NCBI GenBank assembly: GCA_000004985.1
Contig: GG738922.1
DNA length: 64,000 bases
From: Naegleria gruberi
Taxonomy: Eukaryota
Direction: 5' to 3' (one strand)
Shown: piece after piece, positions 14,101 through 64,000 of the stretch
How the letters are laid out: each line of letters opens with the position of its first letter
How positions within the stretch are numbered: the stretch's first letter is position 1
Position numbers and translations under genes: made by a program
Notes under the pieces: model-generated
Seen by the model: only the letters and a program-made list of their open reading frames with translations
Told to the model about the DNA's origin: nothing
Databases searched by the model: none

Positions 14101-17100
14101 TTATTTCAATTCCACTTCAGCCTTTTTCTGTTTAAACGATAATACTCCAATGAAATAAGCATGATTAAGAGGCGCACATTTAAGTTCATTTCTCACAGCA
14201 GAACATCCTGGATAAATGTATAATTTTCCTTGATATTTGCTATTGTCTATCTTGACATAAAAGACTTTCTTCTTATCTGCCAATACACGAGCAGCCTTGT
14301 CAATTTTAGAGTTCAATGTATTGGCTCCAAAAGGATCAGTCTTGTTATATATATTGAATACAACTCCTTTCATTTCGAAATCCCAATCAGCCATACCTTT
14401 GATGACAAGGTTGCTATCAAATACACCTCTAAAAGATTTCTCTGTCAAACCCTCTATTGTAATATTTTCAAAATCGTATGATTTCCCATCAGATATGTGC
14501 ACTATTTCTGCGTAAGGTAAATGGTTTGAAGTGGAATCAGAAGAATCAGCAGAGAGAGGGGAATTTTGAGGAATTGGTTCGGTCTTTACAGTATTGTTCA
14601 CTGTGTGGCCTCCTAATCTTCTTTCACTTCTGTATGTTTCTGGGATGGTAGAATAGGATGCAGGAGAAGGGTTATCCAATCTAGGAGTGTATCTTCCGTC
14701 ATTATATCTACTATTGTTGCTTGAGCCTCTATAACTGTCAGTACGATCTGACCTACTGCTACTACCAGAATAACGAGAATAACTTCCACGATCATCATAC
14801 CCACCTCTTCCATATGAGCTATGATATGGAGACTTTGAGTCTCCATAATCTCTTGGTGAGGGTCTGTAGGAGCTGTGTGAAGTGTAAGGTGATCTGGAGT
14901 CTCTAGATTCTCTTGGTGAAGATCTATATGATGAAGATGGTGAAGGCTTTGAGGTTGCATAATTAGATTCACTTGGAGAACGAGGAGCTGTGTACGATGA
15001 TCCGCTATATCTGTTTGAGTTTCTATTCATTTCACTTGGAGAACGAGGGGCTGTATATGATTGCTTGGAAGATACATAGCTCGATGAAGATCTGTTTGAA
15101 GAATTATTGGATGAATTGAAATTGGACCCCATTTCACTTGGAGAAAGTGGTGCAACATAGACAGATGAGGAGGGTTTTTGTGTATTGTAACTGTTAAATC
15201 TAGTTGAACTTGTATGTGTATTACCACTACTGCTAAATCTAGTTGAGCTTGCATTCATTTCACTAGGGGAATGAGGAGCTGTATATGAAGATCCACTGTA
15301 TCTAGTGGTTGAATTGCTTGGAGTTGAATTGGTTATTTCANNNNNNNNNNNNNNNNNNNNNNNNNNNNNNNNNNNNNNNNNNNNNNNNNNNNNNNNNNNN
15401 NNNNNNNNNNNNNNNNNNNNNNNNNNNNNNNNNNNNNNNNNNNNNNNNNNNNNNNNNNNNNNNNNNNNNNNNNNNNNNNNNNNNNNNNNNNNNNNNNNNN
15501 NNNNNNNNNNNNNNNNNNNNNNNNNNNNNNNNNNNNNNNNNNNNNNNNNNNNNNNNNNNNNNNNNNNNNNNNNNNNNNNNNNNNNNNNNNNNNNNNNNNN
15601 NNNNNNNNNNNNNNNNNNNGTTTCAGCTGTTGGTCTATTTGAAGGAGAAACTGGTGGAACCTGAGTATTGCCAGTGTTACCATCACTACTAGAAATGTAT
15701 TCTGTGGAACTAACATTTTGATGTTTTTTCTTATTCTTAGGTTCTTCGAGAGGAACTTCAGATGGATCAATACCTTTTGAGGATAAGAATTTGTTTCTAT
15801 TCTCTAAATATCGTTGCTCCCTATCTTGTTGTGATTTCGTATGTTGCTGCATGAAGGCTGCAATTCCTCCTCCTCCGCCTCTTGATGTGGGAGTAGTTGT
15901 GGAGCTTGGTTTGGTTTCAGTTGTTTTGGTGGATACTGTGGGAGAAACAGTTGTAGCACTAGGTACAATATTTGGTGTTCTTTCCTCCTTGGTTGACTGT
16001 TTAGCTAAAAAACGTTGTTTATCCTCTTCGAACTTGTTCTCCTTATCTTCTTTTGCTTTGGTGTGTTGTTGCATGAAGGCTGCAATTCCTCCTCCTCCAC
16101 CTCTTGATGTGGGAGTAGTTGTGGAACTTGGTTTAGTTTCATTAAGGGGCGAAATATTCTTAAAGGCACGAAAATTGGAGCCCGATTCACTCGGAGAAAG
16201 TGGTGCAACATAGGTCGAGATTTTTTGTGTATTGTCACTGTTAAATCTAGTTGAAATTGCATTCATTTCACTTGGAGAGCGAGGAGCTGTATATGAAGAT
16301 CCACTGTATTTAGTGGCTGAATTGCTTGAAGTTGAACTGGTTGTTTCACTTGGAGAACGTGGTACAACATACGAAGATGATGAAGATTGTGCACTGTTAA
16401 ATATTTTTGAAGTTGTGTCTATTTGACTTGGAGGGGATACGTTCCTAAAATTGGCAGATGGAGTATTTTCTGATGGAGATCTTGGTGCTGTATATGAAGA
16501 TGAACTAGAGGGTACATTGATGGTATTAAATCTATTCTGAGTGAAACTGCTCGACGAATTGGTACCACTATTTGAAATTGGTGGATTAAATATTTCATTA
16601 TTTCTAATTGTGGTATGTGGAGATGATTTTCTGGCTTCACTTGGAGAAATTGGAGCTACAAAGGGAGTATTGGATCTAAAGCTAGTTGGCTTTGATCCCA
16701 TTTCAGTTGGGGAGCGTGGAGGGATGTATTGCTGATTATTAACAACTGGTCCTTGAGTATCTACAATATTATGGGCTGAGGCAACTGTTTTACCAACCTC
16801 ACTTGGAGAAATAGGAGCTGTAAATAAAGGGGTGGTGTGTGTTGGTGGATTAGTAATGGTGCCTTGGCTGAATTGTGTTAAATATCGGGGATCCCTTAAT
16901 CTAGGATCGCTAGGGAATGTATTTAATCTTGGGTCAACTGGTACAAATGTAGAACTTCCTGGTGGCAACTTGAACTGTGGTGAGGTGGTTTGAGTTATTG
17001 GATTAGTTACTAAGGAAGAGCCAATAGTGGTTGATGTATTAGAAACTCCATTGTTGACACCAGTAGTAAATGCGTTATTACCAAAGGAAGAATTGATTGT

Positions 17101-18066
17101 TGAAGAATTAGAAGGAGGCAAACTCATTGATGAATTGGTTGGAGTTGGGTTTGAGGTTGGAGGAATTTGTTGACCATTGATAGAGTTTGGTGGAATTTTA
17201 ACTGCTTCCACAGCATTTGATCTATTAAGCCTTGGAATACTGATTGTAGATAAGGGTCTTTGTTCTGCAGGTTGATCACTTTGTGTCTTTGCTGCTGTAA
17301 CAATGTTCCTCTTTGGAATTTTGAAAGGAGGCTGTTTCACACTACCAACCTCTGTTTGTGGCTTTTTCTTAACCTTAGAAAGAGGATTGGAATCTTCCTT
17401 TGGAATATTTACAAGATTAGGCTGCTGTGAAGAGCTACCAGTAGTTGTGTCTGTCTTTGTCAACTTGATCTTTTTTGAATCTTGATTTTCTTCTTCCGAA
17501 GTAGAGTCCTCATCATCCATTACAAGCTTTTTACGTTTCTTTACCTCTGAATTAGCCTTCTTCTTGGATTCTTTTACTTCCTTCTTTTTAGTTTCCTTCC
17601 TTGTTTCCTTTTGTTTTGCATTTTGTTTTTTCCTCTGTGGCTCCTTTTTAGATGATGAAGAAGAAGAAGCTTGTGGTTGATGATGTTGAGGAAATTTGGG
17701 ACTAACATTGTCTGTACTACTACTTCCGATATCGTCTGTGGATGACCTTTCGGGACTTGACAATGGAGAATCACTAGTTGTACTTTCCTGTTCCGATTTA
17801 ATTGAGTTGATGCAGGTTGCAATTTCAGACTGCCTTGCTTCAAACTCTTCCACAATAGTCATCACACCATTTAGTGTTACATTTTCATAGGATTCCCACG
17901 TACAATCATCGAATGGATAGTTGGCCCATTTGACGAGATAAAGTGGTTTACCTCTCTCGTAACGTTTTGCTAGAATAAATTCCGCATCATAGATGCATTC
18001 ATCTTCTTCTACCATTTTACACAAAATTCTGTGGTCAATTTTGATGTACGGAAGCCTATTTGTCAA
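14101..18066 (-). CDS. chromodomain protein with long S/T/P-rich repeat region (Y-x-APRSPSE motif repeats) and a C-terminal globular domain; CDS interrupted by an assembly gap
   Basis: The N-terminus YDAEFILAKRYERGKPLYLVKWANYPFDDCTWESYENV is a canonical chromodomain. The middle part is a basic KKE-rich stretch followed by at least 12 copies of SYTAPRSPSE / YVAPLSPSE-type motifs. A duplicated block KPSSTTTPTSRGGGGGIAAFMQQHTK sits near the 280-N gap at 15340-15619. The C-terminal ~140 aa (ADWDFEMKGVVFNIY...LYIYPGCSAVRNEL) form a non-repetitive domain I could not identify. Confidence 0.8.
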   Translation of the reverse strand: MTNRLPYIKIDHRILCKMVEEDECIYDAEFILAKRYERGKPLYLVKWANYPFDDCTWESYENVTLNGVMTIVEEFEARQSEIATCINSIKSEQESTTSDSPLSSPERSSTDDIGSSSTDNVSPKFPQHHQPQASSSSSSKKEPQRKKQNAKQKETRKETKKKEVKESKKKANSEVKKRKKLVMDDEDSTSEEENQDSKKIKLTKTDTTTGSSSQQPNLVNIPKEDSNPLSKVKKKPQTEVGSVKQPPFKIPKRNIVTAAKTQSDQPAEQRPLSTISIPRLNRSNAVEAVKIPPNSINGQQIPPTSNPTPTNSSMSLPPSNSSTINSSFGNNAFTTGVNNGVSNTSTTIGSSLVTNPITQTTSPQFKLPPGSSTFVPVDPRLNTFPSDPRLRDPRYLTQFSQGTITNPPTHTTPLFTAPISPSEVGKTVASAHNIVDTQGPVVNNQQYIPPRSPTEMGSKPTSFRSNTPFVAPISPSEARKSSPHTTIRNNEIFNPPISNSGTNSSSSFTQNRFNTINVPSSSSSYTAPRSPSENTPSANFRNVSPPSQIDTTSKIFNSAQSSSSSYVVPRSPSETTSSTSSNSATKYSGSSYTAPRSPSEMNAISTRFNSDNTQKISTYVAPLSPSESGSNFRAFKNISPLNETKPSSTTTPTSRGGGGGIAAFMQQHTKAKEDKENKFEEDKQRFLAKQSTKEERTPNIVPSATTVSPTVSTKTTETKPSSTTTPTSRGGGGGIAAFMQQHTKSQQDREQRYLENRNKFLSSKGIDPSEVPLEEPKNKKKHQNVSSTEYISSSDGNTGNTQVPPVSPSNRPTAEXXXXXXXXXXXXXXXXXXXXXXXXXXXXXXXXXXXXXXXXXXXXXXXXXXXXXXXXXXXXXXXXXXXXXXXXXXXXXXXXXXXXXXXXXXXXXXEITNSTPSNSTTRYSGSSYTAPHSPSEMNASSTRFSSSGNTHTSSTRFNSYNTQKPSSSVYVAPLSPSEMGSNFNSSNNSSNRSSSSYVSSKQSYTAPRSPSEMNRNSNRYSGSSYTAPRSPSESNYATSKPSPSSSYRSSPRESRDSRSPYTSHSSYRPSPRDYGDSKSPYHSSYGRGGYDDRGSYSRYSGSSSRSDRTDSYRGSSNNSRYNDGRYTPRLDNPSPASYSTIPETYRSERRLGGHTVNNTVKTEPIPQNSPLSADSSDSTSNHLPYAEIVHISDGKSYDFENITIEGLTEKSFRGVFDSNLVIKGMADWDFEMKGVVFNIYNKTDPFGANTLNSKIDKAARVLADKKKVFYVKIDNSKYQGKLYIYPGCSAVRNELKCAPLNHAYFIGVLSFKQKKAEVELK
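15340..15619. other. assembly gap (280 N) inside chromodomain gene repeat region
   Basis: Run of N. Confidence 0.95.
15843..16155. repeat. intragenic tandem duplication (~78-bp unit repeated ~235 bp apart) inside the chromodomain gene
   Basis: The stretch gttgctgcatgaaggctgcaattcctcctcctcc.cctcttgatgtgggagtagttgtgga.cttggttt occurs at about 15843-15920 and again at about 16078-16155. It encodes the duplicated peptide block and lies adjacent to the N gap, so the repeat array is probably collapsed in the assembly. Confidence 0.6.
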
Positions 18067-18305
18067 AGCCTAAAATTTTGGTGGTTTGAAGTGTGAAACG
18101 GTTATGAGGTGAGTTTGTTTTTTTTAAAATTTTCAAGCCTTTGAAAAACCGCGCCAAAGTCTCTATAAAGCCCATTACTTTGTTCAACACATAAAGCCAG
18201 GCTTTGAGAAAAATCGAAGGCTTTTATTATCAATGTCTAAATGATTTGATTGGTTTTTGAAATCAGTTTACAAGATAAAAGTTACCATTTTGAAACAAGT
18301 AACAT

Positions 18306-20885
18306 TTATCTCAATGTCATCATGTCATTGCTTAGGGTATGAGTTGTTTGATTTGAAAAGAATCGACCAAATTGCTTTGATCCAAACGAAGAAGATTGAC
18401 TGCCAGAGTGTAGAATGTCTGAAGCACTCGAAAAGATCTTCCAGAAACGTAATGTCTGATCACCAGCTGCTGAAACTACAGAGCTTCCATCTGGAGATTG
18501 AGCCAAATGCAATACTCTGCTTGTGTGACCAGTGAGCTCAGCAACCTTTCTCAAACTTGGATACTTCCATACAATCAATTGATTCTGAGAGAAACCATGA
18601 GAGGAAACAAGTTCCTTATCATACTTGGACCACAATAAACTACACACTTGAGATTTAGTATCCACAGAGTTCAAAAGAGCACCATTAGAAGTATTCCAAA
18701 AGTGAATCTTTCTATCGGCTGTACCACCTCCAGAGGCCAACAAATTGCTCTGCCATGGACACCAAGCAAGAGCCTTAACTGCTGCAGTATGTTCATTGAA
18801 TGTGAATAGAGCAGGCGAGAAGCTAGCACTACTAGCATCCCAAATATGAAGAGTATTGTCGTTACCACCTGAGGCCAATTGAGATCCATCTGGAGACCAC
18901 TTTAAGCCACAAACTTCCTGGTTGTGACCTGAATAGACAGAAACAACTTGACTTGGATATTGAGGAATGGTTTCATGTTGATGAAGGAACATGCCATGGC
19001 TATTAGAATGAATAGCACCTGGACCTATTCTTACATCGTGATTTAAAATCTTTCCATCTCTAGATCCAGATGAAAGAATAGATTGACAACGAGGATTCCA
19101 TGAAAGGGAACCAACTCTTGCCTGATGACCAATCATTCTTCTTACCATGGTCTTTCTCTCGACGTTCCAAATCTCAATAGTGCAATTGTTTGTTCCTACA
19201 GCAATGTGATGACCATCAATAGTCCAGGCAACACTGGTAACCGTATTATCTGTTTCTTCTTCCTCATTGTCATTCGTTTCCATGAGCTTGGTAATATTTC
19301 CATTGTTTGCATCCCACAAATAGACAGTATCAAAGAGGGATACTGCCAATAAATTTTGTGAGCTCCAATCCAATAAATTTAAATAAAAATCATCAACCAA
19401 TTTTGGTGCATCGAGTATTCTCTCTGGAATTGCAGAAATAGATCTGTGTCGTGAGTTGGAACTGCTTCCTCCTTGGAGCAGTTGTCTCTTTTCCATTTCT
19501 GTCATTTGAGAGAATTGCTTGTTGCAGGAAAATACTGCTTGGAGCTTGTTTTGAATATTGGTATCAGCACTGGTTGGTGTTTGGCTACTTCTCTTTGGAG
19601 AGAATGGTACATTCACAGCATTACCTCTTCTGATATTTTCCTGATTGTCAAATATGGAATCACTCACACAATCTGCCGAGTCAGCTCCCCTGGTGCTAAA
19701 ATCAAAGAAGAGATCCTGATCATCAGGATAGGATGTATGAATGTTGGAATTGGTTGGTTTGAATTTGAAAATCTTCTTTTCAGAAATCTTGGAATCCAAC
19801 AATCTACTTTCCAAACAAGACTCGAATTGATATGGCATATTCATTTGTGAGCTGGTGGATGAACCTTGCTGACCACTGCTTGGAGATCCTGGTGTATTGG
19901 CATTTCCATCATTAGATGTAAACATTAAATGTTTGGCAATTTCCATTTCAGATTGGGTGCATCTTTGAGGTATAAATCTGTCAGCATGTAGAGATGGGGA
20001 ATTTAGAATGACATCAAAGTTTCTTCTCTTCGAAGCAGGAGACATATTCCATCCAGCACTAATGTCTGTATTCTTCTTAGGTGAGGTCATATTGGTTGGT
20101 GTGAAGGTTTTTGGAGTTAGAATAGATTCTGATAAAATTGCAGATGGATCAAACACTTCACCACAACTACTCGAAAAATTATCTTGCAAATCGTTTGAAC
20201 AAGTGTTAACACTATTAGTTTCCCCAGCTAAACTTGAAAAATCCAATCGTTTCACAACTGATGGCTTACGATCACCAAAAGGTGCCACCACTTTCTTAGT
20301 TGTCTTATTGCAAGAGGTTAAACAATTTCTATCATTGACAAGCTGAGCACCAAGTTGAATCTTGAGCCCATTTCCAGGTTGAGGAATGTGTTGTTGAAGA
20401 GGAGCTTGCTTGAGTGGTGAGAGGGCAGAGTGAGGATGAATTCGTTTCTTATTATTTGGTGAGAGGGGATTATTTTGGAGGTGTAAATTTACATTATTAT
20501 TGTGCAGAGATAGCCCATTGCCTCTACCTTTCACTGGAACATTAGTTACTAAATGACTTGGAGCAGTTCTTGGACATGTTGGACTCTCTGGTTTGTTATG
20601 TCTTGGTGTTTGTACAAGGTTTTGAGCATTAGGTGGCATTGATTGACCACTAAAAGGAAGAGAAGAGAATTGATTATTATTATTGGATCTAGGTGAGGTA
20701 AACAGCAAGGAATCGGTCATGTTACTTGTAGAGGTTGGTAAAGAGATTTTCAACCCACTATTCAGTACCAATGAATGTCTTTTGCTATTATTATTATTAT
20801 TATTCTGCTTATGTGGGGAAAGATGATCCAACAAGCCTTTCGTTGGAGAGGATGGCAAGGGAGAAGTGAGCAGGAGATTGGACAT
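18306..20885 (-). CDS. Cdh1/Fizzy-related-like APC/C coactivator (Cdc20 family WD40 protein) with long N-terminal extension
   Basis: Contains the C-box DRFIPQR. The WD40 propeller has [29 protein letters not shown] ... [33 protein letters not shown]. The [14 protein letters not shown] signature is closer to Cdh1/Fzr than to Cdc20. The 859-aa single ORF is unusually long for this family. Confidence 0.85.
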
Positions 20886-25516: not shown

Positions 25517-25521
25517 GAACC

Positions 25522-25594
25522 CTCCCCCTGGTGGGCTCGAACCACCGACCTGCAGATTAACAGTCTGACGCTCTACCGACTGAGCTAAGGGGGA
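25522..25594 (-). tRNA. tRNA-Asn (anticodon GUU)
   Basis: Minus-strand sequence TCCCCCT-TA-GCTC-AGTCGGTA-GAGC-G-TCAGA-CTGTTAA-TCTGC-AGGTC-GGTGG-TTCGAGC-CCACC-AGGGGGA-G folds as a cloverleaf. It has a 7-bp acceptor stem, a TAGCTCAGTCGGTAGAGC D-arm, a CU-GUU-AA anticodon loop and a GGTGGTTCGAGCCCACC T-arm. It is followed by a T-run terminator on the same strand. Confidence 0.9.
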
Positions 25595-25910
25595 ATACAT
25601 GAAATAGAAAAATAATCTTTATACAAATCATAAATCTAACATAGGTCACTGCCATGCTTAACGTGTTTCTTTATTACTTGAAAGGAGAAATTATTATTGC
25701 TTTTACTTACATATTACAATTTCTGTTTCCATTTGTTGTAAAATCAATCCACTTATTTTACATTTGCATCACGTTTGTTTTTGTGTGCAAACACGTTTGT
25801 TGCAACAAAAAATATAAATAAACTAAGCAAAAAATAGTAGAAAATGTATTTAAATCTAGTTGGTAAAGGTATTTACTCTCCACAACAAAAAAAACAAAAT
25901 AACAATACAA

Positions 25911-32850: not shown

Positions 32851-34083
32851 TTAAACTTGGTTTTGTACAGGTGTTTCTTCATCTTTTGGAGGTGATGGCG
32901 TACTTTCGTCTGTTGTTGAAGGACTGGCCAATTCTGCAACTGTACTCCTGGCATCATCCCTTGGACTGCCTTCAGATTCTTCAATTCTGTCCTTTCTATC
33001 AACGAGGGCAGCTGGTAGTATCTTTCTTGTGGCCATAATGATTTCTTCCTTTGTTTCTTTCAAATCCAATTCATCCAAAGGTCCATAAATAAATGTCAAG
33101 GCAACAGCAAAGAAAAAGATGCTAATTCTCTGCAATGTAATACCAGCAATATAAATTTCATATTGAACCAATGTTAAGATGGCCATAATGACAATACTAC
33201 CAGTAATTCCTCCAAACACCAATTGTAATGCATTCAACAAATTCAATTGTCTGCATGCCTTTCTTCTTTGGAGTGGAACATTTTCTTGTTCACCTCCTAA
33301 TTTTCCAGTGAGTGAAACACCAACCACAATGTTAATAATTCCAAAGAAGAAGATCAAAAACCAATAGCCAAGAGCTAATACTGCATCAGCATAGTAACGA
33401 TTGTAACCAATACTGGAAGCTGTTGCAGCCTTTACACCTGGCATCAAAGAAGTCAAAGATGTGATCATGATAGTAGCAATGTGAAGAGGGGCAATAATTA
33501 AAAGTCCAATAGCACTAATGATAGCTGTCCATTTAACAAACTTGCCAAATCGTTGATTCCTAATGGCAATCTTCTTTGGGACGGTTTTCCCTAAACTTTC
33601 CTGTTGATTTTCAACAACTCTCATCCACCACTGTGACTTATCAAAGTAAACCTTATACAGAATCCTTGTAATTGTCAAGAAGCAAAAGACACATAGAATG
33701 ACAGTCAGATTACCACATGAATATTGAATAGCAGCAAAAGGATCCATGCATTCCTTTTGATTACCTATCAGAACACAAACTGAATACATGATACCTGAAG
33801 TTATTGATAAAATTTGTAAACATGACATGAGCACCACTAGTCCATAAAGACATCTCTTGATGAAAACCATTGTTCTCCATCTAATAATTAATAAAATAGC
33901 AACTACAAAACCTAGAACCAAAAAAGGAGGTAGAGTTATCGAGTAGACAACCAATGCACCTGTAAACCTGTTGATAATTTTGCTGTCATTACTGTATGTC
34001 AATGCTTGATGAATTGTATACGTTGGGTCATCAATGATAGAGTAGAATGGATTGTCTTGACTATTCATTGCATAACTCTCCAT
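32851..34083 (-). CDS. seven-transmembrane receptor-like membrane protein with acidic S/T/P-rich C-terminal tail
   Basis: 410-aa ORF with seven predicted hydrophobic helices, judged by eye. The cytoplasmic tail is rich in D, E, S, T and P. No family-specific motif was recognised. Confidence 0.6.
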   Translation of the reverse strand: MESYAMNSQDNPFYSIIDDPTYTIHQALTYSNDSKIINRFTGALVVYSITLPPFLVLGFVVAILLIIRWRTMVFIKRCLYGLVVLMSCLQILSITSGIMYSVCVLIGNQKECMDPFAAIQYSCGNLTVILCVFCFLTITRILYKVYFDKSQWWMRVVENQQESLGKTVPKKIAIRNQRFGKFVKWTAIISAIGLLIIAPLHIATIMITSLTSLMPGVKAATASSIGYNRYYADAVLALGYWFLIFFFGIINIVVGVSLTGKLGGEQENVPLQRRKACRQLNLLNALQLVFGGITGSIVIMAILTLVQYEIYIAGITLQRISIFFFAVALTFIYGPLDELDLKETKEEIIMATRKILPAALVDRKDRIEESEGSPRDDARSTVAELASPSTTDESTPSPPKDEETPVQNQV

Positions 34084-40584: not shown

Positions 40585-40702
40585 GGCTACGGCCATATCA
40601 CGATGAATGCACCTCATCCCGTCCGATTTGAGAAGTTAAGCATCGTCGAGCCACATCAGTACTGAGGTTGGAGACAACTTGGGAACCTGTGGTGCTGTAG
40701 TC
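40585..40702 (+). rRNA. 5S ribosomal RNA
   Basis: GGCTACGGCCATATCACGATGAATGCACCTCATCCCGTCCGATTTGAGAAGTTAAGCATCG...TACTGAGGTTGGAGACAACTTGGGAACCTGTGGTGCTGTAGTC has the ACGGCCATA start and a helix I closing 5'GGCUACGG/3'CUGUAGUC. The ...CTGGTTGGAGACAAC...GGTGCTGTA segment is near-identical to Dictyostelium 5S rRNA. A T-run follows immediately. Confidence 0.85.
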
Positions 40703-40709
40703 TTTTTTC
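40703..40709 (+). terminator. Pol III oligo-T terminator after 5S rRNA
   Basis: TTTTTTC directly follows the 3' end of the 5S gene. Confidence 0.5.
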
Positions 40710-51763: not shown

Positions 51764-52499
51764 TTTCAAGAGAAGAGAAAGAAGGGCATCAAAGTTTAAA
51801 TATTTTTTTTGATTAATAAAAATAAAAAAAATTAAATAGAGGACAATCATCGTCGAATAGTTAATCAATGCTTGGCACTGCGGATTTTGTATAATATTTG
51901 GTGGAAACTTCCAACCTTTAAATATTCATCACCACAATTTTCAACATCCAACTCCAATGTTGTTCTTGGAAACGATTTTATTGGAGAGTAGAAGTACCCT
52001 GCAAATATCTTGATGATATCAAAATCACCATCATCAGCACATTTACTTGGTCATCACAAAAACTGTTAATTGGGGATTGCTCGGAATGGTCAATAGTATG
52101 TGTGGGGTGAATCTTGATTTTTGTCATGAAATCGGTACAAGATTATTTTCACATGTACACAACCTCATCAACCAAATACAAGCTTTCTTCTAGTAATAGT
52201 ACTATTTAATTTTCGCAACAACATCTTCATCATTACTTGGTAATATTGTCATGGTGTGGAGGTTGGATACCACAAAGCTTCATATCATCTCAACATAATC
52301 TAAATAGTAATAATAGTAATTTTTATTAGCGGATTATCATCATTTAAGAACATCCCTTCATGCTTCGGAATACATGAGTTGGAGAACCAGCAACTTGGAT
52401 TGTTGGAAATAGTCAACAGTAGCAATTTGTCCTTGGATTTTCATCGGGAATTTCAGAAACAAAAACCTTTGAAAAAAGAGTTTTTAAACCTTATATTGT

Positions 52500-53290: not shown

Positions 53291-54400
53291 ACCAAGCGAA
53301 TCCATTTCTTGTATTTTTTTCTTAGAAATTTGTGGCAGTCAACTGTCTTATTAATAAACTTTGATGAACATCCAACATGCGTATTTGAAAATCTACACAT
53401 CAAAAAATATTCAACAAACGGTGATGATTTTCGGAGTGGTTTTACATCATATCATCATGATTTGGAAATAATTTTATTATTTGGAAAAATTCAAGTTGGT
53501 ACATCATCATCGGAACAACTACCAACCATCATCATTGTTATTTATCATCACTATAATAGTAATATTTGTGGAAATAAATCTGATAATAGTAATATTTTAG
53601 TGAAATTCAATATTTTCACTAAAATCGTCATCACTGCCAGATTCACATGATAATTTGGAAAACTTTCAATCTAGTATTGTTCAGCATGGTCAATTCCATC
53701 AGGTAAAATCACTTCCGAACATTTTCCTATTGGTTATCATGATGGTAGGTACATGTATATTTTCAACATGTACATGGACTATATCTCAACATATACTTCA
53801 CCAACTTGGAAAATGTCTTCGTAGCTACTATTCAAATACATAATAAACAATATATTTATTATCAGTTTTTCATTATTTTGTTGTTTTACCAACTTCGGAA
53901 TATTCATGATTACAAATATGATTCATGCCAAAAGTACATAGCCAATCATCTTGAAACATTAATAAACTTTTATTAGTACTATTGTAGATGTACCATATCA
54001 ATTATTTCGTCTTGTTTCGTTGAAATCATGAGGATCTATTTTTCTGTTTTTAATTAAATTTCACATCACCTACACCATATTTGTTGATGTAAACTAGACC
54101 AGACTAGTTACATGTAAATAATCCGTTGATTCTCTAATCATGTTTTACTGGTGTATTTAGGATTTTGAAATCTTGCAAATTATTCTGAGGTTATTCTTCA
54201 TATAAATATGATTCCTCACTTCATGATATGAGGAGGGATTGATATCATGATTGTTTGGAAGTGTTGTACAAACTTTGGAAACTATCTGAATTGAAATAAA
54301 GCAGAAAGAGTAATCTTTAACACCATATAAAATATGACTTTAGACGATTGTTTTGACAAGGCAAATTTATGCGTAATAAATCGCATAGAACACATGGTCT

Positions 54401-54494
54401 ATTATATTCAATGAATAAGGGATGAGAAACATTCATTAGAAGAAGATAGATTTCCAGTGATATATTCTCTCACTACAATTTATTATTTCAATAT
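54401..54494 (+). repeat. ~95-bp dispersed repeat, copy A
   Basis: attatattcaatgaataagggatgagaaacattcattagaagaagatagatttccagtgatatattctctcactacaatttattatttcaatatc is the reverse complement of 61936..62032, allowing a few mismatches. Confidence 0.6.
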
Positions 54495-54835
54495 CTTTTA
54501 AAGTAATGAGGAAAGTATTTCAATCATACAAATAATTTTGATTTGACTGAAAGCCACAAGGACATTTTAAAATATTTATTAGTCAGATCAGAAAAAAAGT
54601 AATTTCAATCAAGCATTTATTTTGTAAGAATAAAAATTGAATTGGATTTTTTGTAAATCTGTCAGATTCCAGTAAAGTACTATTTGTCATATGTGGCAAC
54701 TCAATTCTGAAGCAATTTTTGTTCCAGCAATGGTAGTTGTTTGAATAATACCTGCAGAATTTATCTTATTCTATAAGTTTCAAATGAGCATTGATGGAAA
54801 CATGCGTGGTATCCAACGATGATCATTTGGAATGA

Positions 54836-56440
54836 TTAAGGTAAGGCCGTTATGCCTGTGAGCGCTGAAGTTTCTGCCAACATCAACTTGTTTTGTTTGG
54901 CAAAGAGAAACATTTCCTCTCTTGAAATTCTCCAACAAACTCTTGGAAGATCACACTTGGTGGCCAACAGCAAAAATTGGGTTGCTTGAATTCCGGTGCC
55001 TCCGTTCTTAATGATTGATTGTATTTGTGGAAAAACATTTTCCTTTGTGTCCGTAACTGAAAAGCAAATTACTAAGCTGGTTGACTTATAGTTAAGCGAA
55101 ACTTTAGGAGAGTAAACACCCGTGTGGTAAATGTTTTGGTAGTAAATATTGACCTTCTCATGAGAATTGGAATGGAAAGTATTGTATGCGAATTGATGAA
55201 GTAAACTGTTAGCTCCTGAATCGTTTCCTATTCCTACACAAATGATGTAGCTATACCGGCTCTGGAATGTTTTGTGATTTCTGGCCAATTTGAAATCTTC
55301 CAATGGGTATTTTGTCTGGATTTCTTTTGGTATTTCTATACAACTGGAGAGTGTATAAGTTCTAACAAAAAAACAGTAACGAGCCAAATAGATAAGAAGT
55401 GGTCGCACAGAGTCAATATAATCCATTTCTAGCAAGGATTGTAGGACTAGGAGGGCATTATCAATTCCCCTGGTAGACTCCTTAATGACATGTGCACAAT
55501 AATTTGAGAGAATGTCAAATCCAACCATGTCGCAATAAAGCATCAACTCAATAGCAATGCTGTCATTTTGAATATTTCCAGTCATGATAAAGAGCAGAAT
55601 AGTTTCCAACAAGGAGGAGCTAACATCCATTGGTACAATTCTCTGAGAGCATTCTATCATTCCACTCGAGAGCAATGTGTTGAAAAAAGGAGATCTATAC
55701 CTAATAATGTCATTGGTAATTTGCAATACTTTTCCAGGATTGGAATCAGATATTTCATCAACATTAGAAGTGAAATAAACCAATGATTCTGAGGGCTTAT
55801 CGTCTACAGAGCCATTTAACCACTTTTGAATGCAATTCTCCCATGATCCAATGAATTCATCAATGCAAAATGTTGGATTGAAATTTCGTCCACATCCACT
55901 CAAGTAAGATCCGAACTCTTTGGAAATTGTCAAATCAAAAAACTTGGAAATTAGTAATAAATCATAAACATAAAATTCAGAATCAAAAATGTATGGACTA
56001 ATCTCCATTCCTCCTTCCATTCTTCCATACTCAAAGTAATCTATTATCAAATAAGGACAATAGAGTCCCACCACTAATAGATCAATAACATTCTCCAGAT
56101 ATTTTTGTTTCTCTTTGATATTGTATAGATATACCAATCCTTTGAACTGTTTCTTGGCTATTTCGAATGTAAATTCCAATTCCTCTCCCTCCTTCACTTG
56201 CTTGCTAATCAATTTACTGAATGTGCTTACAATTTCCGTATGTATGTGTTTCGTAATTGAAATCTTTGTACCATCCACAATAAAGTGAAAGGTAAAGCAT
56301 TCACTTGAAAAATTTTGCAATTCAGCCTTTTCCTCTTCTATTATTGTTGTGTTTCTATTTAAATTACTTATCCTCTTTTCGTTTCGTATAATAATTGGTC
56401 CAAGCCAATCAATTTCTCTCTTATCCATACGTTTGGACAT
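54836..56440 (-). CDS. BTB/POZ-domain protein with C-terminal degenerate Ras-superfamily GTPase-like domain
   Basis: 534-aa ORF. The central BTB-like region reads VLQITNDIIRYRSPFFNTLLSSGMIECSQRIVPMDVSSSLLETILLFIMTGNI...ELMLYCDMVGFDILSNYCAHVI. The C-terminal ~150 aa align to small-GTPase blocks but with degraded motifs: G1 VGIGNDSGAN instead of GxxxxGKS/T, G4 TKCD instead of NKxD, and G5 ETSAL instead of SAK. The protein ends 8 aa after G5. Confidence 0.65.
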   Translation of the reverse strand: MSKRMDKREIDWLGPIIIRNEKRISNLNRNTTIIEEEKAELQNFSSECFTFHFIVDGTKISITKHIHTEIVSTFSKLISKQVKEGEELEFTFEIAKKQFKGLVYLYNIKEKQKYLENVIDLLVVGLYCPYLIIDYFEYGRMEGGMEISPYIFDSEFYVYDLLLISKFFDLTISKEFGSYLSGCGRNFNPTFCIDEFIGSWENCIQKWLNGSVDDKPSESLVYFTSNVDEISDSNPGKVLQITNDIIRYRSPFFNTLLSSGMIECSQRIVPMDVSSSLLETILLFIMTGNIQNDSIAIELMLYCDMVGFDILSNYCAHVIKESTRGIDNALLVLQSLLEMDYIDSVRPLLIYLARYCFFVRTYTLSSCIEIPKEIQTKYPLEDFKLARNHKTFQSRYSYIICVGIGNDSGANSLLHQFAYNTFHSNSHEKVNIYYQNIYHTGVYSPKVSLNYKSTSLVICFSVTDTKENVFPQIQSIIKNGGTGIQATQFLLLATKCDLPRVCWRISREEMFLFAKQNKLMLAETSALTGITALP

Positions 56441-57070: not shown

Positions 57071-59507
57071 TCAAACTGTTCTTGCTGTATCGTCTGACAA
57101 GTCTTTCACAATGTTATCATCAATGTTGTCCTCATTGTTGTGGTCATTGTCAACTAAATTTTCATTTTGGGTGATGTTATTAGTTGATAAAGTTGTTGGC
57201 TGGGTTGGTGGTTGATTTCCATCTATTTGAATAAACCTTGCCATCTTTGCATTTTCCACAAAAATAGCTTGGGAAAGGTTAATAATTGCTGGTGTGGAGG
57301 TTTTCAAGTCGTCAAAGTATTTTGCTGCTTTTCTTGTTTCCTTTTCAACTCCAGATACTGGCATAATTCCATCGTTATCCGTGGCAACTGTTAAGCAATT
57401 AATATCTACAGGAATTGACAAATCGTGGAAATCAAAGAGTAAATATTCATTACTTGTTGGACACCATTCAAAGAACACCTTCTTGTCTTTCATAATAATT
57501 TCTCTATAATTTTTCATTCTGTTAAATACTTCTTCATTATAAAAAGGTCCAGATCCTTGTTCCAACATAAATCCAACACCATGACCCAATCTCAATTTTG
57601 CCTTCATATTTTTGCAAATTTCAATAATTGACCAAAATGTAATGTCCATATGCTTCAAGAAGAATGTTTTATCCTCATCTATAAAAGTGTTCTCTCCACA
57701 GTGATATCTTAATCCTAATAATTTTCCTGTTTTCTTATTGTAAAGTTCAGCTATTCTCCAAAAACATTTCAAAACAAAAACGCATGGAGCAAAATACTTT
57801 TCATCTCCAACCCAATCAAATCCAACAACTGCACCAACATCAATTACCTTCTCTATTTTAAGCAATTTGAAGAGCTTATCGATTTGTGCCTCAAGTTCAT
57901 TGCCATCATTTACAATGCAAAGTTGTTCCAATGTTTTTGTGAAAATTTGTTCTGAGAAAGCTTGTTTTAAATACTTTTGACTGCAACAGAAATCGAATTT
58001 TTCAGTATCTGACATACCTTCCTTAAAGTGACATGTTATTTCTATTCATTGCGGCCAAAAAGTAATAATAAAATTGTTTGCTTTCATCATTATGCTTAAT
58101 TTCTAAGTGATTATCAACGTGGACTAATTTAATATCTTCATCGGTTAGAAGAGATCTGTACCTGTTCCAAAAAGTCTCTAATGTTGAGGGTTTCAAATAC
58201 TTTGAGATTGAATCTGTTTTCAAATCTTTCAGACTAACACTATATTCAACATACTCAACTCCTTCTTTGTAGTAGTTATAAATGGTATGCAGTAAGAGTA
58301 TGGATAATATTTCAGGATACATAAAATACATGCTATCTTTCAAAATGAATCTTTGTGGATAAAAATCTGGTGTGAATTTGACATTATGAACACCTACAAG
58401 TTTCATTTCAAATGAAAGCAATAAAGTGTTGTAAAGAACTCGCTTTGTAGGGTCAGGCTTTCTTTTTTCATCTGCATCTAACTTTGCTATAATTTGTGCA
58501 TTTGTAAAACCATATTTCAATTCGTATTTTTCTTCTCTTTGGTTGAATACATAGTAATTTTTTGGTTTTGCGCCAATTACTTTACTAATATTAGCAATTT
58601 GTTCCTTTTTGGGTAATGTGAATAAATTGAAAGCTCTGCTCAAATCTTCTAAACTGTACACAACATCATTGGTATGAACTGCTTTTAAGGAAAGCACTTC
58701 TGATTCCAAAGTAAGGTTGTCTATGTCTGCATTGGTGAACAAACTTGATTTAGTAAGTGTAGAACTGATGTCAAGCGGAACGATTGGCAAAGCTTGCACA
58801 AGATTTGGGATATACTTTTTCATGATTACTTCAATCCAGAAATCAGCATTACCCATACCCATTAAATGAGTGTGGAGTTCTGAAAGCTGGTATGAATTAC
58901 CAATAGGTATGTTTTGATCTGTCACTTTTTGAGGTGGTTGATAATATGAAGGATCGTTTGTTGCTTTAACTGAATGTTCCTCTAGTACAACAGGAGGAAT
59001 ATAATCTCTTTCATTGAACTCTTCATCATAGCTTGTATAAATCCATTTGGAGTCTCCTACTTCAACCAATAAGCCTTTTTCACCTGGTGTTGGTTGGAAG
59101 CAGACAGAAATTTCTTCATCATAATGTGTGAATAAATCTATAGCTGAATTCTTTTTAATTGAAATGTAATCTAAAGGGAGTGAAGAATATTTGCTCCACC
59201 TATCCTTAGCGTTAGAGTCAGCAATAGGAGGTACTTTTTTAAGATAAAGTTTGGCATTTGGAAGTTTCTGTTGTAATTCTAAAACATGTTCCTTAGAGAA
59301 AGATGTTGCACTGTATTTGAGGGAGAGAAAATTAAAGAATGGCTCTGGTGGTGCAGAAGAAAGACTCATAGCTCCTCGCAGCGTTAAGTTTCTAAGAACA
59401 GGAGTATTGGTTTTTGAAATTCCATTCAAAAATGTTCCATGAATATTAGGATTTTCTTTACCAAGGGTTTGGTACCTGTCATTATCTCTCTGGTTTGGGA
59501 TCCGCAC
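57071..59507 (-). CDS. divergent AMP/adenosine deaminase family protein (A_deaminase fold), encoded as two ORFs in different frames 7 nt apart (probable frameshift or sequencing error); 5' end overlaps a repeat
   Basis: ORF 58023..59507 carries the N-terminal metal motif LSELHTHLMGMGNADFWIEVIMK, comparable to DTHIHAxxCMNQKHLLRFIK of AMP deaminases. ORF 57071..58015 carries LRYHCGENTF, RLGHGVG, EWCPTSNEYLLF and TVATDNDG, in the same order and spacing as the PHCGE, GHG, SPLSNN and STDDP blocks of AMP deaminase. Deleting one T from the CTTT run at the junction fuses the two frames (..MSLKEGMSDTEK..). Confidence 0.6.
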
Positions 59508-59586
59508 ATGCTCAGATCTAAAAGCTTATCGATGTGATGTATAATAGACTTATCGACATGTGGTTAAAACAGGAAGGTGTAACTTT
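59468..59586. repeat. direct repeat copy 1 (~120 bp; restriction-site-dense)
   Basis: tttggtacctgtcattatctctctggtttgggatccgcacatgctcagatctaaaagcttatcgatgtgatgtataatagac...ggaaggtgtaacttt is about 93% identical to 59791..59915. Confidence 0.6.
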
Positions 59587-59636
59587 NNNNNNNNNNNNNN
59601 NNNNNNNNNNNNNNNNNNNNNNNNNNNNNNNNNNNN
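59587..59636. other. assembly gap (50 N) between direct repeat copy 1 and retroelement fragment
   Basis: Run of N. Confidence 0.95.
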
Positions 59637-59800
59637 GGAATTGTCTTCTAGGCTTCTCCATAATCTTTCACGAAGATATTCAGTTTTCTTGCAGTTGAAA
59701 ATGGCGTGTTGAGTGTTCTCCTCTTCCTTGCAATCTTTTATAGGGCATCCATTACCTGGTGTAAAGATGTTGTTTGTTGGGAGACTGGGTTTTGGTACCT
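59637..59800 (-). mobile_element. 3'-terminal fragment of a non-LTR (LINE-like) retrotransposon ORF2 (CCHC zinc knuckle), 5'-truncated
   Basis: The minus-strand open frame reads ..LPTNNIFTPGNGCPIKDCKEEENTQHAIFNCKKTEYLRERLWRSLEDNS. It has the C-x4-C-x7-H-x4-C spacing with an E..TxH core that is characteristic of the C-terminal Cys-His motif of non-LTR retrotransposon ORF2 proteins. The frame is cut off by a stop upstream and by the N gap downstream. Confidence 0.45.
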
Positions 59801-59915
59801 GTCATTATCTCTCTGGTTTGGGATCCGCACATGCTCAGGCTCAGATCTTATAGCTTATCGATGTGATGTATAATAGACTGATCTACATGTGGTAAAAACA
59901 GGAAGGTGTAACTTT
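59791..59915. repeat. direct repeat copy 2 (~125 bp)
   Basis: Same sequence as 59468..59586 apart from a 6-bp insertion (ggctca) and a few substitutions. Confidence 0.6.
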
Positions 59916-61171
59916 CTATATTTATTGAGATAATCAATAAAGTTTGGAATTTGTCAGAAAAACTTGCCCTCTCGCCAAGAATTCATTTTGCCATATTTGG
60001 GATCTGGACTTTTATAGTCTGGAAATAGGCTAGATGTGTTCCATATTCAATAATCTATATGAAAAAAAGAAGAAATAAAATTAACTCTTGAATTGAGTAT
60101 ATAACGACTATTGATATTACTATATATGGTATTTGGATAATAACTTTCACAGAAATCATTAATGAAACATAAATTGTACTAAAGTGTGTTAGAAACATAA
60201 TGGTGGTGAAACTGATCAATAACTCGTCGAAATGACTGAGATGGAATGTAAACTATGGTCCAAATGTCATGTATTTGTAACTAAACAGTGTCAACTCCGC
60301 CAAAGTGCTTTAAACTAGATTGATATCATCAAAAACACTTCTAGACATCACATATGCCATAAAGAATGAGTTTCAATATTTGATATTGTGAATAGACTCT
60401 GTTGGATACCATCCCTATAAATATAACGAGATGAAAAGTGTCAACATTCAATTTCACATACATGTTACTATGAAGAGTCGTCATACCATCATCTAGATAG
60501 GTAGTATTTCAAGTTTCAGTGGAATTGACAGTCTAGATATTGAGATGTGTATACTAAGGTTGAAGAAGTGTCACCTTCACTGATTACTGACATGAATATA
60601 ATAATTGAATATATGATTCTTGTATAATTAATTCATTATTCAATGATTTTGATATGATGGTAAAATTTAATTTTGAAATTAAGATTCTTCCCTATTGATT
60701 ACCTTAGATTTTCCTTAGTTGACTTGAAGATATTGAGCCATCAATTTGAAACTTTCTCAGATTGTTCTCCTCATCTAGGGAAGTGTATTCATATTTGATA
60801 CTTGTATGATATTTTGTAAAATGAATGAGATGGATTATATTCAATGTGTTGAAATATGACAATTTGACAGATTGTTATTATTATCATACTGAATTCAATT
60901 CTAAAACATTAAAATTGATTCCAGATGTATATCAGCGTGATTAAATGTATCTGGTAAAGTTACATGACGGTTGGAGGTACTTTCGCTGAGATAGAGCGTA
61001 CACTTGGATATAATCACTCTTGACATTGAACATTTACTGATTGACTGAATGAAAATATCATGAATTGTTTCTAAACTTGTATAGATGTATATAAATGGTG
61101 TACAGAATGTGTATTATCAATTCTAGACTAATTACATATAAAATAAGTGATTTGGAGCATAATCTTTGATT

Positions 61172-61489
61172 TTATGTCAAAGTTCTATAGNNNNNNNNNN
61201 NNNNNNNNNNNNNNNNNNNNNNNNNNNNNNNNNNNNNNNNTTTATCTAAAACCATTTTACTTTCTTCGAAATTTTCTTTTGTTACCTGAAAACAATCTAA
61301 AAATTTGAACACTGCTAACTTTTCTTCCTTGTTGGTACAAAGTTTGATATAACGTTCCATTTTGTATTGTATAACTGTATCCAAATGTTGTTTGTTTGTC
61401 TTGCAAGTGATGTACCATGGTAGGAGATGTTTTGCACCAATAAACCTTGCAATCTTAAACACAACTTCGGAAGAAAGTGTTGTTTTCAT
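61172..61489 (-). pseudogene. F-box family gene fragment truncated by assembly gap
   Basis: The ORF reads MKTTLSSEVVFKIARFIGAKHLLPWYITCKTNKQHL.., which follows the F-box pattern of the 4408 and 27193 genes. It runs into the 50-N gap at 61191-61240 and there is no continuation beyond. Confidence 0.35.
61191..61240. other. assembly gap (50 N)
   Basis: Run of N. Confidence 0.95.
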
Positions 61490-61935
61490 TTTTTTTTATT
61501 AGATTTTGGATGATTACAACAATTTTTAGAATTAATTAGGGAAGTGTATGACAAAGTATATTGTCAAAATCAAAAAAAGGCCAAACCACATATGTAAAGT
61601 TAATCGAAACTGGAAACTAATTAGTTAAAACCAGAATCCAACTGCCTTTTATGAAAATTAATTTATGATTATATTTCCACGCCATCCAATGCACTACAGT
61701 AAGGTTCGTCTGAAACCGATAACCAGTACAGCAGCGGTTAAATAATAGGTATATTCATCATGTGATGAAATCGAATCAATTTTTTGTACCGTAAAGATTT
61801 TTCTCTGGATTTTCTAGGATAGATTTTTGTTCCAAATTCTTTCCTGGAATTTACAGACTTCTTTTTCAAGATAGTTCAACTCCAGCTATTTTGATATGAG
61901 CTGATGAAAAACCTTCTATCTCAATTAACTTGACA

Positions 61936-62032
61936 GATATTGAAATAATAAATTGTACAGAGAGAGAATATTTTACTGGGAATCTATCTTCTTCTAATGA
62001 ATGTTTCTCATCCCTTATTCATTGAATATAAT
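61936..62032 (-). repeat. ~95-bp dispersed repeat, copy B (inverted relative to copy A)
   Basis: gatattgaaataataaattgtacagagagagaatattttactgggaatctatcttcttctaatgaatgtttctcatcccttattcattgaatataat. Confidence 0.6.
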
Positions 62033-62412
62033 AGTAAAGTATCACAAATATTAAAAGTAATATATCCAATAGTGAATTACAGTAAAAGATAATTATCTGG
62101 TAGAGAATGGATGAATGACATGCTATTCGTGATGTTTCAGTGAGAAGTCAATATCCACATCATGAGAAAAACAATAAAAACATGAAAATATCAGATATCC
62201 ATGATTTTCACAAATTATGCTACAAGACTTGAAATTATACATTTAATAACATAATAAACATTATGAATTGTTGTTTTATTGTTGTTTGATTTGTAATTGG
62301 GCTATGAATCAACTCTGGTAGCATACCTATCCCTATCATAACTTGACCAAAATTGATAAGAGAAAGTTCTCCTACCTACTATTGACCATTCCGAACAATA
62401 CTACATTGACAG

Positions 62413-62446
62413 TTTTGGGGTTTGGGTTTGGGTATGGCGAAAACCC
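62413..62446 (+). repeat. interstitial telomere-like repeat (3 units) with an adjacent inverted unit
   Basis: ttttggggtttgggtttgggtatgg is followed 4 nt later by aaaccc. It lies 1.2 kb proximal to the terminal array. Confidence 0.5.
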
Positions 62447-63294
62447 ATTACCATTTTATTAATGGCCAATATTTAAAACTTGGATCTTATATATGTTAAT
62501 CAGGGTACAATTTCATCGACAAACTGTTATATGCTAATAAAAACTCAAAGTGGTTCTAGAGATAATAGGTACTCGATGAAAAAAAAGTTAGGTTTTCTTC
62601 GCATATCTCAATAACTAGGAATATCTGAAATACCATCTACACATAATCAATAGATCAATATATGAGTTGACTAAATCCGGTGAAAAAATTAAAACATAGT
62701 TGAAGGCCAAAAAGTTATAAGGCATTGCCTAAAATATTAAGGTATTTACCCTAGTAGGTCTAAAATTTCAAAGTTGGGTTGGAATGTAAATTTTAACATA
62801 TTGTAGATATATAGATGAATAGATGATATTATGAATTAATCAAGTTGCATCGGTGTATGTAATAAATTACAACTTGTCTAAAAATTAACTTTTCAACATT
62901 TATTGTACTATAATATGAATGTTATTAGAATCATCACCAATCTCATATATATGATGTATAATGATGATATTCACATTGTAGAAGTGTTGGAAGTATAACA
63001 TATAATATCCTTAGTAAACTGTACTCATTCTACCTTAATTGACCAAGATATTGAGCCGTACTATGGAAACACTATACCAATTTATTAAACTTGTTAATAT
63101 TGTAGTAAATATCAAACATAATCATATATAATTGAAATAACCATTATTGGATCCATATTCAGACTGTAGGAAGTCAACTTGTGTGGAATTGACAATATTG
63201 GTAATTGAAGGATGAATATCTTACATGACTTAATTCCACTCATTGATACATGTCTAATTATCATATTTTATGATATGTAATTGAAATAATTGAA

Positions 63295-63344
63295 NNNNNN
63301 NNNNNNNNNNNNNNNNNNNNNNNNNNNNNNNNNNNNNNNNNNNN
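63295..63344. other. assembly gap (50 N) ~330 bp proximal to telomere array
   Basis: Run of N. Confidence 0.95.
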
Positions 63345-63677
63345 TAGTATAGGTCAGTTGACAAGTTGAATAGTAAATTTCTTGAAATGATACCAAAGTA
63401 TTTGAAATTGATATATATTGTTATTAACATGATTTATAAGGTGATTTATTGATTTGAAATGATTTTGAAATGTTTTCATTGATATTCTAATTGTCTAATC
63501 TATTATATGAAATTAACTTATATAAGTCATTATAATGATGTAATATTATGTTATAATATGATTATATATTCAATTTGGAGTATATTGATATATAATATAT
63601 TGATTTATAATGAGTATTTATTGAGATAATAAATTAAGATGAATAAAAGTCAAAATATTGGGTCTGACCTTAGTCGT

Positions 63678-64000
63678 GGGTTTGGGTTTGGGTTTGGGTT
63701 TGGGTTTGGGTTTGGGTTTGGGTTTGGGTTTGGGTTTGGGTTTGGGTTTGGGTTTGGGTTTGGGTTTGGGTTTGGGTTTGGGTTTGGGTTTGGGTTTGGG
63801 TTTGGGTTTGGGTTTGGGTTTGGGTTTGGGTTGGGTTTTGGGTTTGGGTTTGGGTTTGGGTTTGGGTTTGGGTTTGGGTTTGGGTTTGGGTTTGGGTTTG
63901 GGTTTGGGTTTGGGTTTGGGTTTGGGTTTGGGTTTGGGTTTGGGTTTGGGTTTGGGTTTGGGTTTGGGTTTGGGTTTGGGTTTGGGTTTGGGTTTGGGTT
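63678..64000 (+). repeat. terminal telomere-like array (GGGTTT)n, >=53 units, running to the window end
   Basis: Perfect hexamer tandem array with a single variant junction (gggtt|gggtttt at ~63829-63841). The G-rich strand runs 5'->3' toward the end, as expected for a right-hand chromosome terminus. Confidence 0.85.

Follow-up and report, generated by a model that had tools for sequence, protein, structure and literature searches.

A probable telomere of homogeneous TTTGGG repeats at one scaffold end of Naegleria gruberi, with outward TTTGGG arrays in a second heterolobosean lineage

The stretch of Naegleria gruberi DNA analyzed here, 64,000 nucleotides in length and referred to below as the window, ends in a (GGGTTT)n array at 63678–64000 on the + strand. 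We consider it very probable that this array is a true N. gruberi telomere, or an assembly-captured part of one, on a nuclear chromosome. The array is a rediscovery, as the repeat is already known in N. gruberi. Our additions are the anatomy of one end, including a variant unit, the junction, an interstitial relic, decayed duplicates, and a gap, as well as a second heterolobosean lineage with TTTGGG.

TTTGGG was named as the candidate telomeric repeat of N. gruberi from scaffold ends, without experiments, by Fulneckova et al. (2013, Genome Biol Evol 5:468; PMC3622300). The initial annotation of the window had implied that the hexamer was undocumented, which does not hold given this publication and the occurrence of the same hexamer in Paramecium. 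The 2013 survey covered 143 assemblies and judged candidate telomeric minisatellites by their position and their orientation relative to adjacent sequence. Inconclusive genomes were dropped from it, and the N. gruberi pattern was classed as convincing (PMC3622300). According to its authors, terminal position needs experimental confirmation, and most genomes also have internal telomeric blocks (PMC3622300). The window is one instance of that published candidate, with the same organism, assembly, hexamer, and identification by position and orientation. In the literature we searched, we found no wet-lab proof of terminal position for the Naegleria repeat, no later papers on Naegleria telomeres, and none on the TERT or telomerase of Naegleria or the telomeres of Acrasis. 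A nanopore paper on N. fowleri does not mention telomeres (PMC6831594). The TTTGGG repeat in Heterolobosea is therefore still an in-silico candidate.

The terminal array and its host genome

We defined the array by direct reading, by Tandem Repeats Finder, and by a unit-by-unit parse. The parse gave a length of 323 bases and 54 G+T+ units, 51 of them exact GGGTTT, and Tandem Repeats Finder reported 63677–64000 with a period of 6, 54.0 copies, 98% matches, and a score of 634. An earlier description of more than 50 perfect GGGTTT hexamers running to the last base is right in its count and in its reach to base 64000. However, the exact units do not form one run: a perfect block of 25 and another of 26 flank the sole internal variant, a GGGTT followed by a GGGTTTT (63828–63839, + strand), and the window end clips the final unit to GGGTT. 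In the variant pair a single T has shifted without loss of register, which may reflect genuine variation or an error in the reads. TTGGGG does not occur among the 54 units. The 12-mer GGGTTTGGGTTT, when at most one mismatch is allowed, occurs 53 times in the window versus 0.32 occurrences expected from shuffles, and the single site beyond the terminal array is at 62418–62435 on the + strand.

The array reads GGGTTT on the + strand, and this G-rich strand runs 5' to 3' toward the window end, as the initial annotation had also observed. A microsatellite at an assembly break would show this outward orientation with a 50% chance by itself. For eight units of the G strand, three-layer stacked G-quadruplexes are predicted at −25.3 kcal/mol, without Watson-Crick structure, which fits the expectation for telomeric G strands. 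The window boundary cuts a unit inside the array, and the chance of this would be well under 1% if the array were internal to the 209,908-bp scaffold described below. Most simply, then, the window end is the end of the record. We infer that it is also the scaffold end, and that the scaffold end would be the physical end of the molecule.

The (GGGTTT)n repeat lacks stop codons in all six frames. An ATG at ~63640 (+) opens an ORF that continues through the array and off the window end (63640–64000), and the IMG pipeline called a 49-aa "gene" within the array of a metagenome contig (L123 6676–6822). Contigs that bear telomeres could be mined through these spurious "proteins," which consist of Gly-Phe, Val-Trp, or Lys-Pro repeats.

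The host, N. gruberi, is a heterolobosean amoeboflagellate and not a dictyostelid. ORFs in the window are long under the standard code, with up to 1,322 codons between stops. The 859-aa CDC20/Fizzy ORF (18306–20885, −) is 100% identical over its full length to the N. gruberi protein "cell division cycle 20," and its next-best matches are in Naegleria lovaniensis (58%), then Willaertia magna. Three more ORFs, at 4408–5919, 32851–34083, and 54836–56440, are exact matches to the N. gruberi proteins EFC37060, EFC37111, and EFC37116. All four proteins are recorded on one scaffold of 209,908 bp, and the strain is NEG-M according to the name of one database entry. The window contains five runs of N, in keeping with the Sanger draft genome, for which 1,977 contigs, 784 scaffolds, and a GC content of 35% have been published (PMC6831594). 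A second, partial copy of the protein encoded at 32851–34083 (−), with at least 90% identity, is present on a 7.6-kb scaffold (EFC35592), a sign that the draft may include haplotigs or very recently duplicated sequence.

An Rfam scan of the window identified only 5S rRNA and tRNA, with no telomerase RNA match. The 5S rRNA gene is a lone, full-length copy (40585–40703, +; 105 bits) ~23 kb from the array, and the tRNA is a single tRNA-Asn(GTT) (25521–25595, −). The large rRNA genes of Naegleria are on a circular plasmid, and chromosomal 5S copies are dispersed genes. The CDC20 gene and a chromo-domain gene are adjacent both in the window (14101–20885) and in N. lovaniensis (PYSW02000002.1 613966–620578; L121), with CDC20 inverted relative to it, and a Peptidase_S28 neighbor in N. 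lovaniensis has no counterpart in the window. In N. gruberi the CDC20 region and the array are ~43 kb apart. In N. lovaniensis the region is found at 614–620 kb of a 1.08-Mb contig, a mid-contig locus from which the TTTGGG repeat is absent.

The terminal contig and the subtelomeric surroundings

The array is carried by a 656-bp contig (63345–64000), in which it is preceded by 333 bp of AT-rich, non-coding sequence (63345–63677). The junction reads ...GACCTTAGTCGT followed directly by GGGTTT. This adjoining sequence has no significant copy elsewhere in the window, where a single 24-nt match of chance level was found (63615–63638 versus 59919–59942), and it offers a unique-junction target for a terminal-fragment or single-telomere-length assay. 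A scaffold gap of 50 N (63295–63344) is the sole tie of the telomere-bearing contig to the rest of the scaffold. Further gaps at 59587–59636 (50 N) and 61191–61240 bring the number to three in the last 4.4 kb. The chromosome terminus proposed in the initial annotation is the best-supported explanation of the array, but its assignment to the given scaffold depends on mate pairs across the 50-N gap, which determine both the linkage and the orientation of the terminal contig.

Proximal to this gap is a gene-poor, AT-rich subtelomeric stretch (59637–63294), in which the gap at 61191–61240 separates two short contigs. Its GC content is ~29% versus 34.3% for the window, and there are no ORFs of more than 105 aa in the last ~4 kb of the window. 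An interstitial telomere-like sequence, TTTTGGGGTTTGGGTTTGGGTAT, of ~3 units lies in this stretch at 62413–62435 (+), 1.25 kb inside the terminal array, whose orientation it shares. We take it to be either what is left of a former end or the place where subtelomeric blocks meet.

A 43-nt element (62374–62416) abuts the interstitial copy directly on its proximal side and has inverted copies at 52059–52101 (84%) and 53659–53694 (89%). Furthermore, a 130-nt non-coding segment (61905–62034) is an inverted duplicate, at 88%, of 54399–54522. The 43-nt element and this segment are collinear with the 52.0–54.5 kb region in inverted orientation and have stops in all frames. Together they make up a truncated and decayed copy of the 52–54.5 kb region, inverted and with a telomere-repeat relic at its end. 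An earlier chromosome end may have been located at ~62.43 kb and later extended by the 1.25-kb distal block and a new array. Extension of an end by a distal block with a new array is a pattern usual in subtelomeres. The ~40-nt element, with the core TTCGGAATGGTCAATAGTA, has its three occurrences within the last 12 kb and may represent the terminus of a small element, either mobile or a subtelomeric repeat.

The last long ORFs before the end, of 314 aa and 494 aa in the ORF list (57071–59507, −), are probably one gene. No Pfam family was found for them, even at E = 1, and we therefore make no claim of a likeness to adenosine deaminase motifs. A search for homologs gave three matches, and because the only named relative is an N. 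gruberi paralog at 39% identity, we regard the last long ORF as lineage-specific. A homolog with 27% identity to it occurs on ENA contigs that all start 278 bp upstream of the homolog, and no telomere repeat is present at those starts. A 128-bp direct duplicate (91%; 59465–59586 versus 59788–59915) spans the 50-N gap at 59587–59636 and covers the 5' end of the last long ORF and the sequence upstream; either partial tandem duplication or faulty assembly at the gap could account for it. The gaps, decayed duplicates, and lineage-specific genes of the last 10 kb are to be read as N. gruberi subtelomere and not as dictyostelid biology.

TTTGGG arrays in metagenomes and a second heterolobosean

We used metagenome contigs as a control, scanning them for (GGGTTT)6, which returned 120 loci. 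An array was called terminal if it lay within 12 nt of the true contig end. In this set 94 arrays were internal, and there were 29 terminal arrays, 20 with the G strand outward and 9 with it inward. When one metagenome, JAESGV01 (= IMG 3300037860), was left out, the terminal arrays were divided 8 outward versus 9 inward, with no orientation bias. Given this split and the frequent assembly breaks at such microsatellites, one correctly oriented terminal array is weak evidence alone. The longest metagenome array is 139 bp, versus the 54 units in the N. gruberi window. Comparison of the window with all 120 loci, at both the DNA and the translated level, showed no similarity and no common subtelomeric element.

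Several low-GC contigs in this set also have arrays at their ends. In one of them (L007, Ga0100402_1016031), the terminal TTTGGG array has mixed GGGTT/GGGGT end units, an internal two-unit copy is present, and the contig encodes an 804-aa ORF without an assigned family. Two others (L060 and L107) have the array at the contig end in inward orientation.

In JAESGV01, all 12 of the 12 contigs returned by the scan end in outward TTTGGG arrays, for which the chance probability is p = 2^-12, and the 12 junction sequences are different and unrelated. Three of the contigs (L084, L085, and L086) have degenerate variants on the proximal side and perfect repeats distally. The JAESGV01 contigs contain long ORFs in the standard genetic code. 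The first 11,497 bp of one contig (L086 1-11497; JAESGV010000876.1) include two PPR-DYW genes, of the editing-factor type, within 12 kb of the end, and a Ty3/gypsy-type pol ORF with RT, RNase H, and integrase starts 90 bp from the array. The product of another contig (L080) matches one protein of Acrasis kona (59% identity) and one of Willaertia magna (54%). These identities, together with the standard code and the PPR-DYW proteins, indicate a heterolobosean source, which by its protein matches appears to be nearer Acrasis than Naegleria. The Acrasis kona ortholog of the telomere-proximal JAESGV01 gene is located mid-contig, at a locus without the repeat.

This second heterolobosean appears to cap its chromosomes with homogeneous TTTGGG, and its arrays give independent support for TTTGGG as a working telomere repeat in Heterolobosea. 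We found no report of this second, Acrasis-related TTTGGG lineage in the searchable literature, and it is known so far from the metagenome only. The 12 JAESGV01 ends suggest that TTTGGG may be older than the genus Naegleria.

Alternative explanations, comparison with known telomeres, and the proposed mechanism

Our reading of the array as a telomere draws on six lines of evidence. A near-perfect 323-bp G3T3 array reaches the last base with its G strand outward; the window boundary cuts a unit of this array; the published survey of N. gruberi named TTTGGG (PMC3622300); the surroundings are subtelomere-like, with a same-sense relic 1.25 kb inside, decayed inverted duplicates of sequence 8–10 kb further in, a drop in GC, no ORF over 105 aa in the last 4 kb, and a lineage-specific last gene; 12/12 JAESGV01 contig ends carry outward TTTGGG; and the G strand is predicted to form G-quadruplexes. 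Direct N. gruberi evidence here comes from one end of one scaffold. The array also has several of the features by which telomeric arrays are recognized. Its tandem unit is short (within 5–8 nt) and T/G-rich, with 54 GGGTTT units; it reaches the very end of the record, at base 64000, with an outward G strand; the arrays of a related heterolobosean are likewise terminal and outward, in 12/12 JAESGV01 contigs; and internal copies are few, short, and subtelomeric, as the other 63.7 kb contain a single copy, of three units, at a distance of 1.25 kb.

Other explanations have to be set against this evidence. The array could be a true N. gruberi telomere whose 656-bp contig was joined to the wrong scaffold or place, so that it marks some other chromosome end. 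The 50-N gap does isolate 63345–64000, there are three gaps in the last 4.4 kb, and near-identical extra copies of window genes occur on small scaffolds, where haplotigs or repeats could complicate scaffolding. However, the neighboring contig has its own TTTGGG relic in the same orientation, is gene-poor, and is built of decayed duplicates. The relic and the duplicates make the region subtelomeric even without the last contig, and we regard a mis-join as improbable. If the Sanger assembly had simply stopped at a G3T3 microsatellite internal to the chromosome, or at an extended interstitial block of telomere-like repeats, this would agree with the metagenome arrays, in which terminal copies outside JAESGV01 point both ways (8 versus 9) and 94 copies are internal, and with the internal telomeric blocks of most genomes (PMC3622300). 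Here, however, the 54 units exceed every metagenome array (maximum 139 bp), and the array has almost no variants, points the right way, and follows subtelomere-like sequence and a relic of the same sense. With the N. gruberi pattern also classed as convincing in the published survey (PMC3622300), we leave this explanation a very slim chance.

Two further explanations concern the organism, and we give both next to no weight. The initial annotation had seen dictyostelid-type genes in the window, and the array might then be the simple-repeat telomere of a dictyostelid social amoeba. What speaks for this is the AT-rich composition (34% GC) and the asparagine/glutamine-rich ORFs, a superficial likeness. 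The four ORFs that are 100% identical to N. gruberi proteins of one scaffold, with the next CDC20 matches in Naegleria lovaniensis and Willaertia magna, contradict it, and a dictyostelid origin is ruled out by these exact matches. Furthermore, sequenced dictyostelids with simple repeats are reported to have TTAGGG/TAAGGG-type telomeres, not TTTGGG (PMC6759168; PMC4931340). The contrast that had been drawn with D. discoideum is irrelevant, since the host is N. gruberi. The chromosome ends of D. discoideum are derived from the rDNA palindrome and have no simple repeat; the organism, the supergroup, and the end structure all differ, and the likeness is limited to both being chromosome ends of amoeboid protists. 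As for a contaminating or chimeric origin of the terminal contig from ciliate DNA, such as that of Paramecium, the unique part of the contig is just 333 bp, AT-rich and non-coding, and homology cannot assign its origin. Against a ciliate source, 0/54 units are TTGGGG, whereas Paramecium mixes hexamers, and a TTTGGG relic is found on the adjacent contig, which bears copies of window sequence. The long standard-code ORFs and the lack of TTGGGG units led us to reject this origin.

Read as an N. gruberi telomere, the array shares its G3T3 unit with Paramecium, where the identical hexamer is also telomeric. [quoted passage not shown] In contrast to these mixed hexamers, the Naegleria array is homogeneous, with 51/54 units exact and none TTGGGG, and the window shows neither a random TTGGGG/TTTGGG mix nor the ciliate code. 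Because the two lineages are unrelated (Alveolata versus Discoba), the motif is convergent in Paramecium and Naegleria.

Telomeres of the TTAGGG type are found in trypanosomatids, which are also Discoba, and in the dictyostelids D. fasciculatum and P. pallidum. Like them, the array repeats a T/G-rich hexamer in tandem, has its G strand outward, is presumed to be a telomerase product, and contains G3 tracts able to form G-quadruplexes. Its unit differs from theirs by one base, TTTGGG in place of TTAGGG, and a binding protein of the Myb/telobox or OB-fold kind would need to recognize this altered unit.

For the synthesis of such an end, we propose that TERT, together with an RNA template containing ~1.5 copies of CCCAAA, would extend the 3' end of the G strand by TTTGGG units. 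The telomerase RNA would carry CCCAAACCC(A) in its template. The homogeneity of the array, with no TTGGGG in 54 units, argues for a template that directly specifies G3T3. The C strand would then be filled in, and the duplex repeats and the G overhang would be bound by capping proteins.

To our knowledge, Heterolobosea is one of few deep eukaryotic branches with a non-TTAGGG hexamer. We see about an even chance that TTTGGG, as a homogeneous repeat and not a Paramecium-style by-product, is the ancestral motif of a large part of Heterolobosea, common to Naegleria and the Acrasis-related lineage. If so, the telomerase RNA template and the end-binding proteins would differ from the TTAGGG system of other Discoba, and the chromosome end would once have been lengthened by capture of a distal block, an event of which the 62.4-kb relic would be the trace. 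A motif older than Naegleria would also aid the search for the heterolobosean telomerase RNA.
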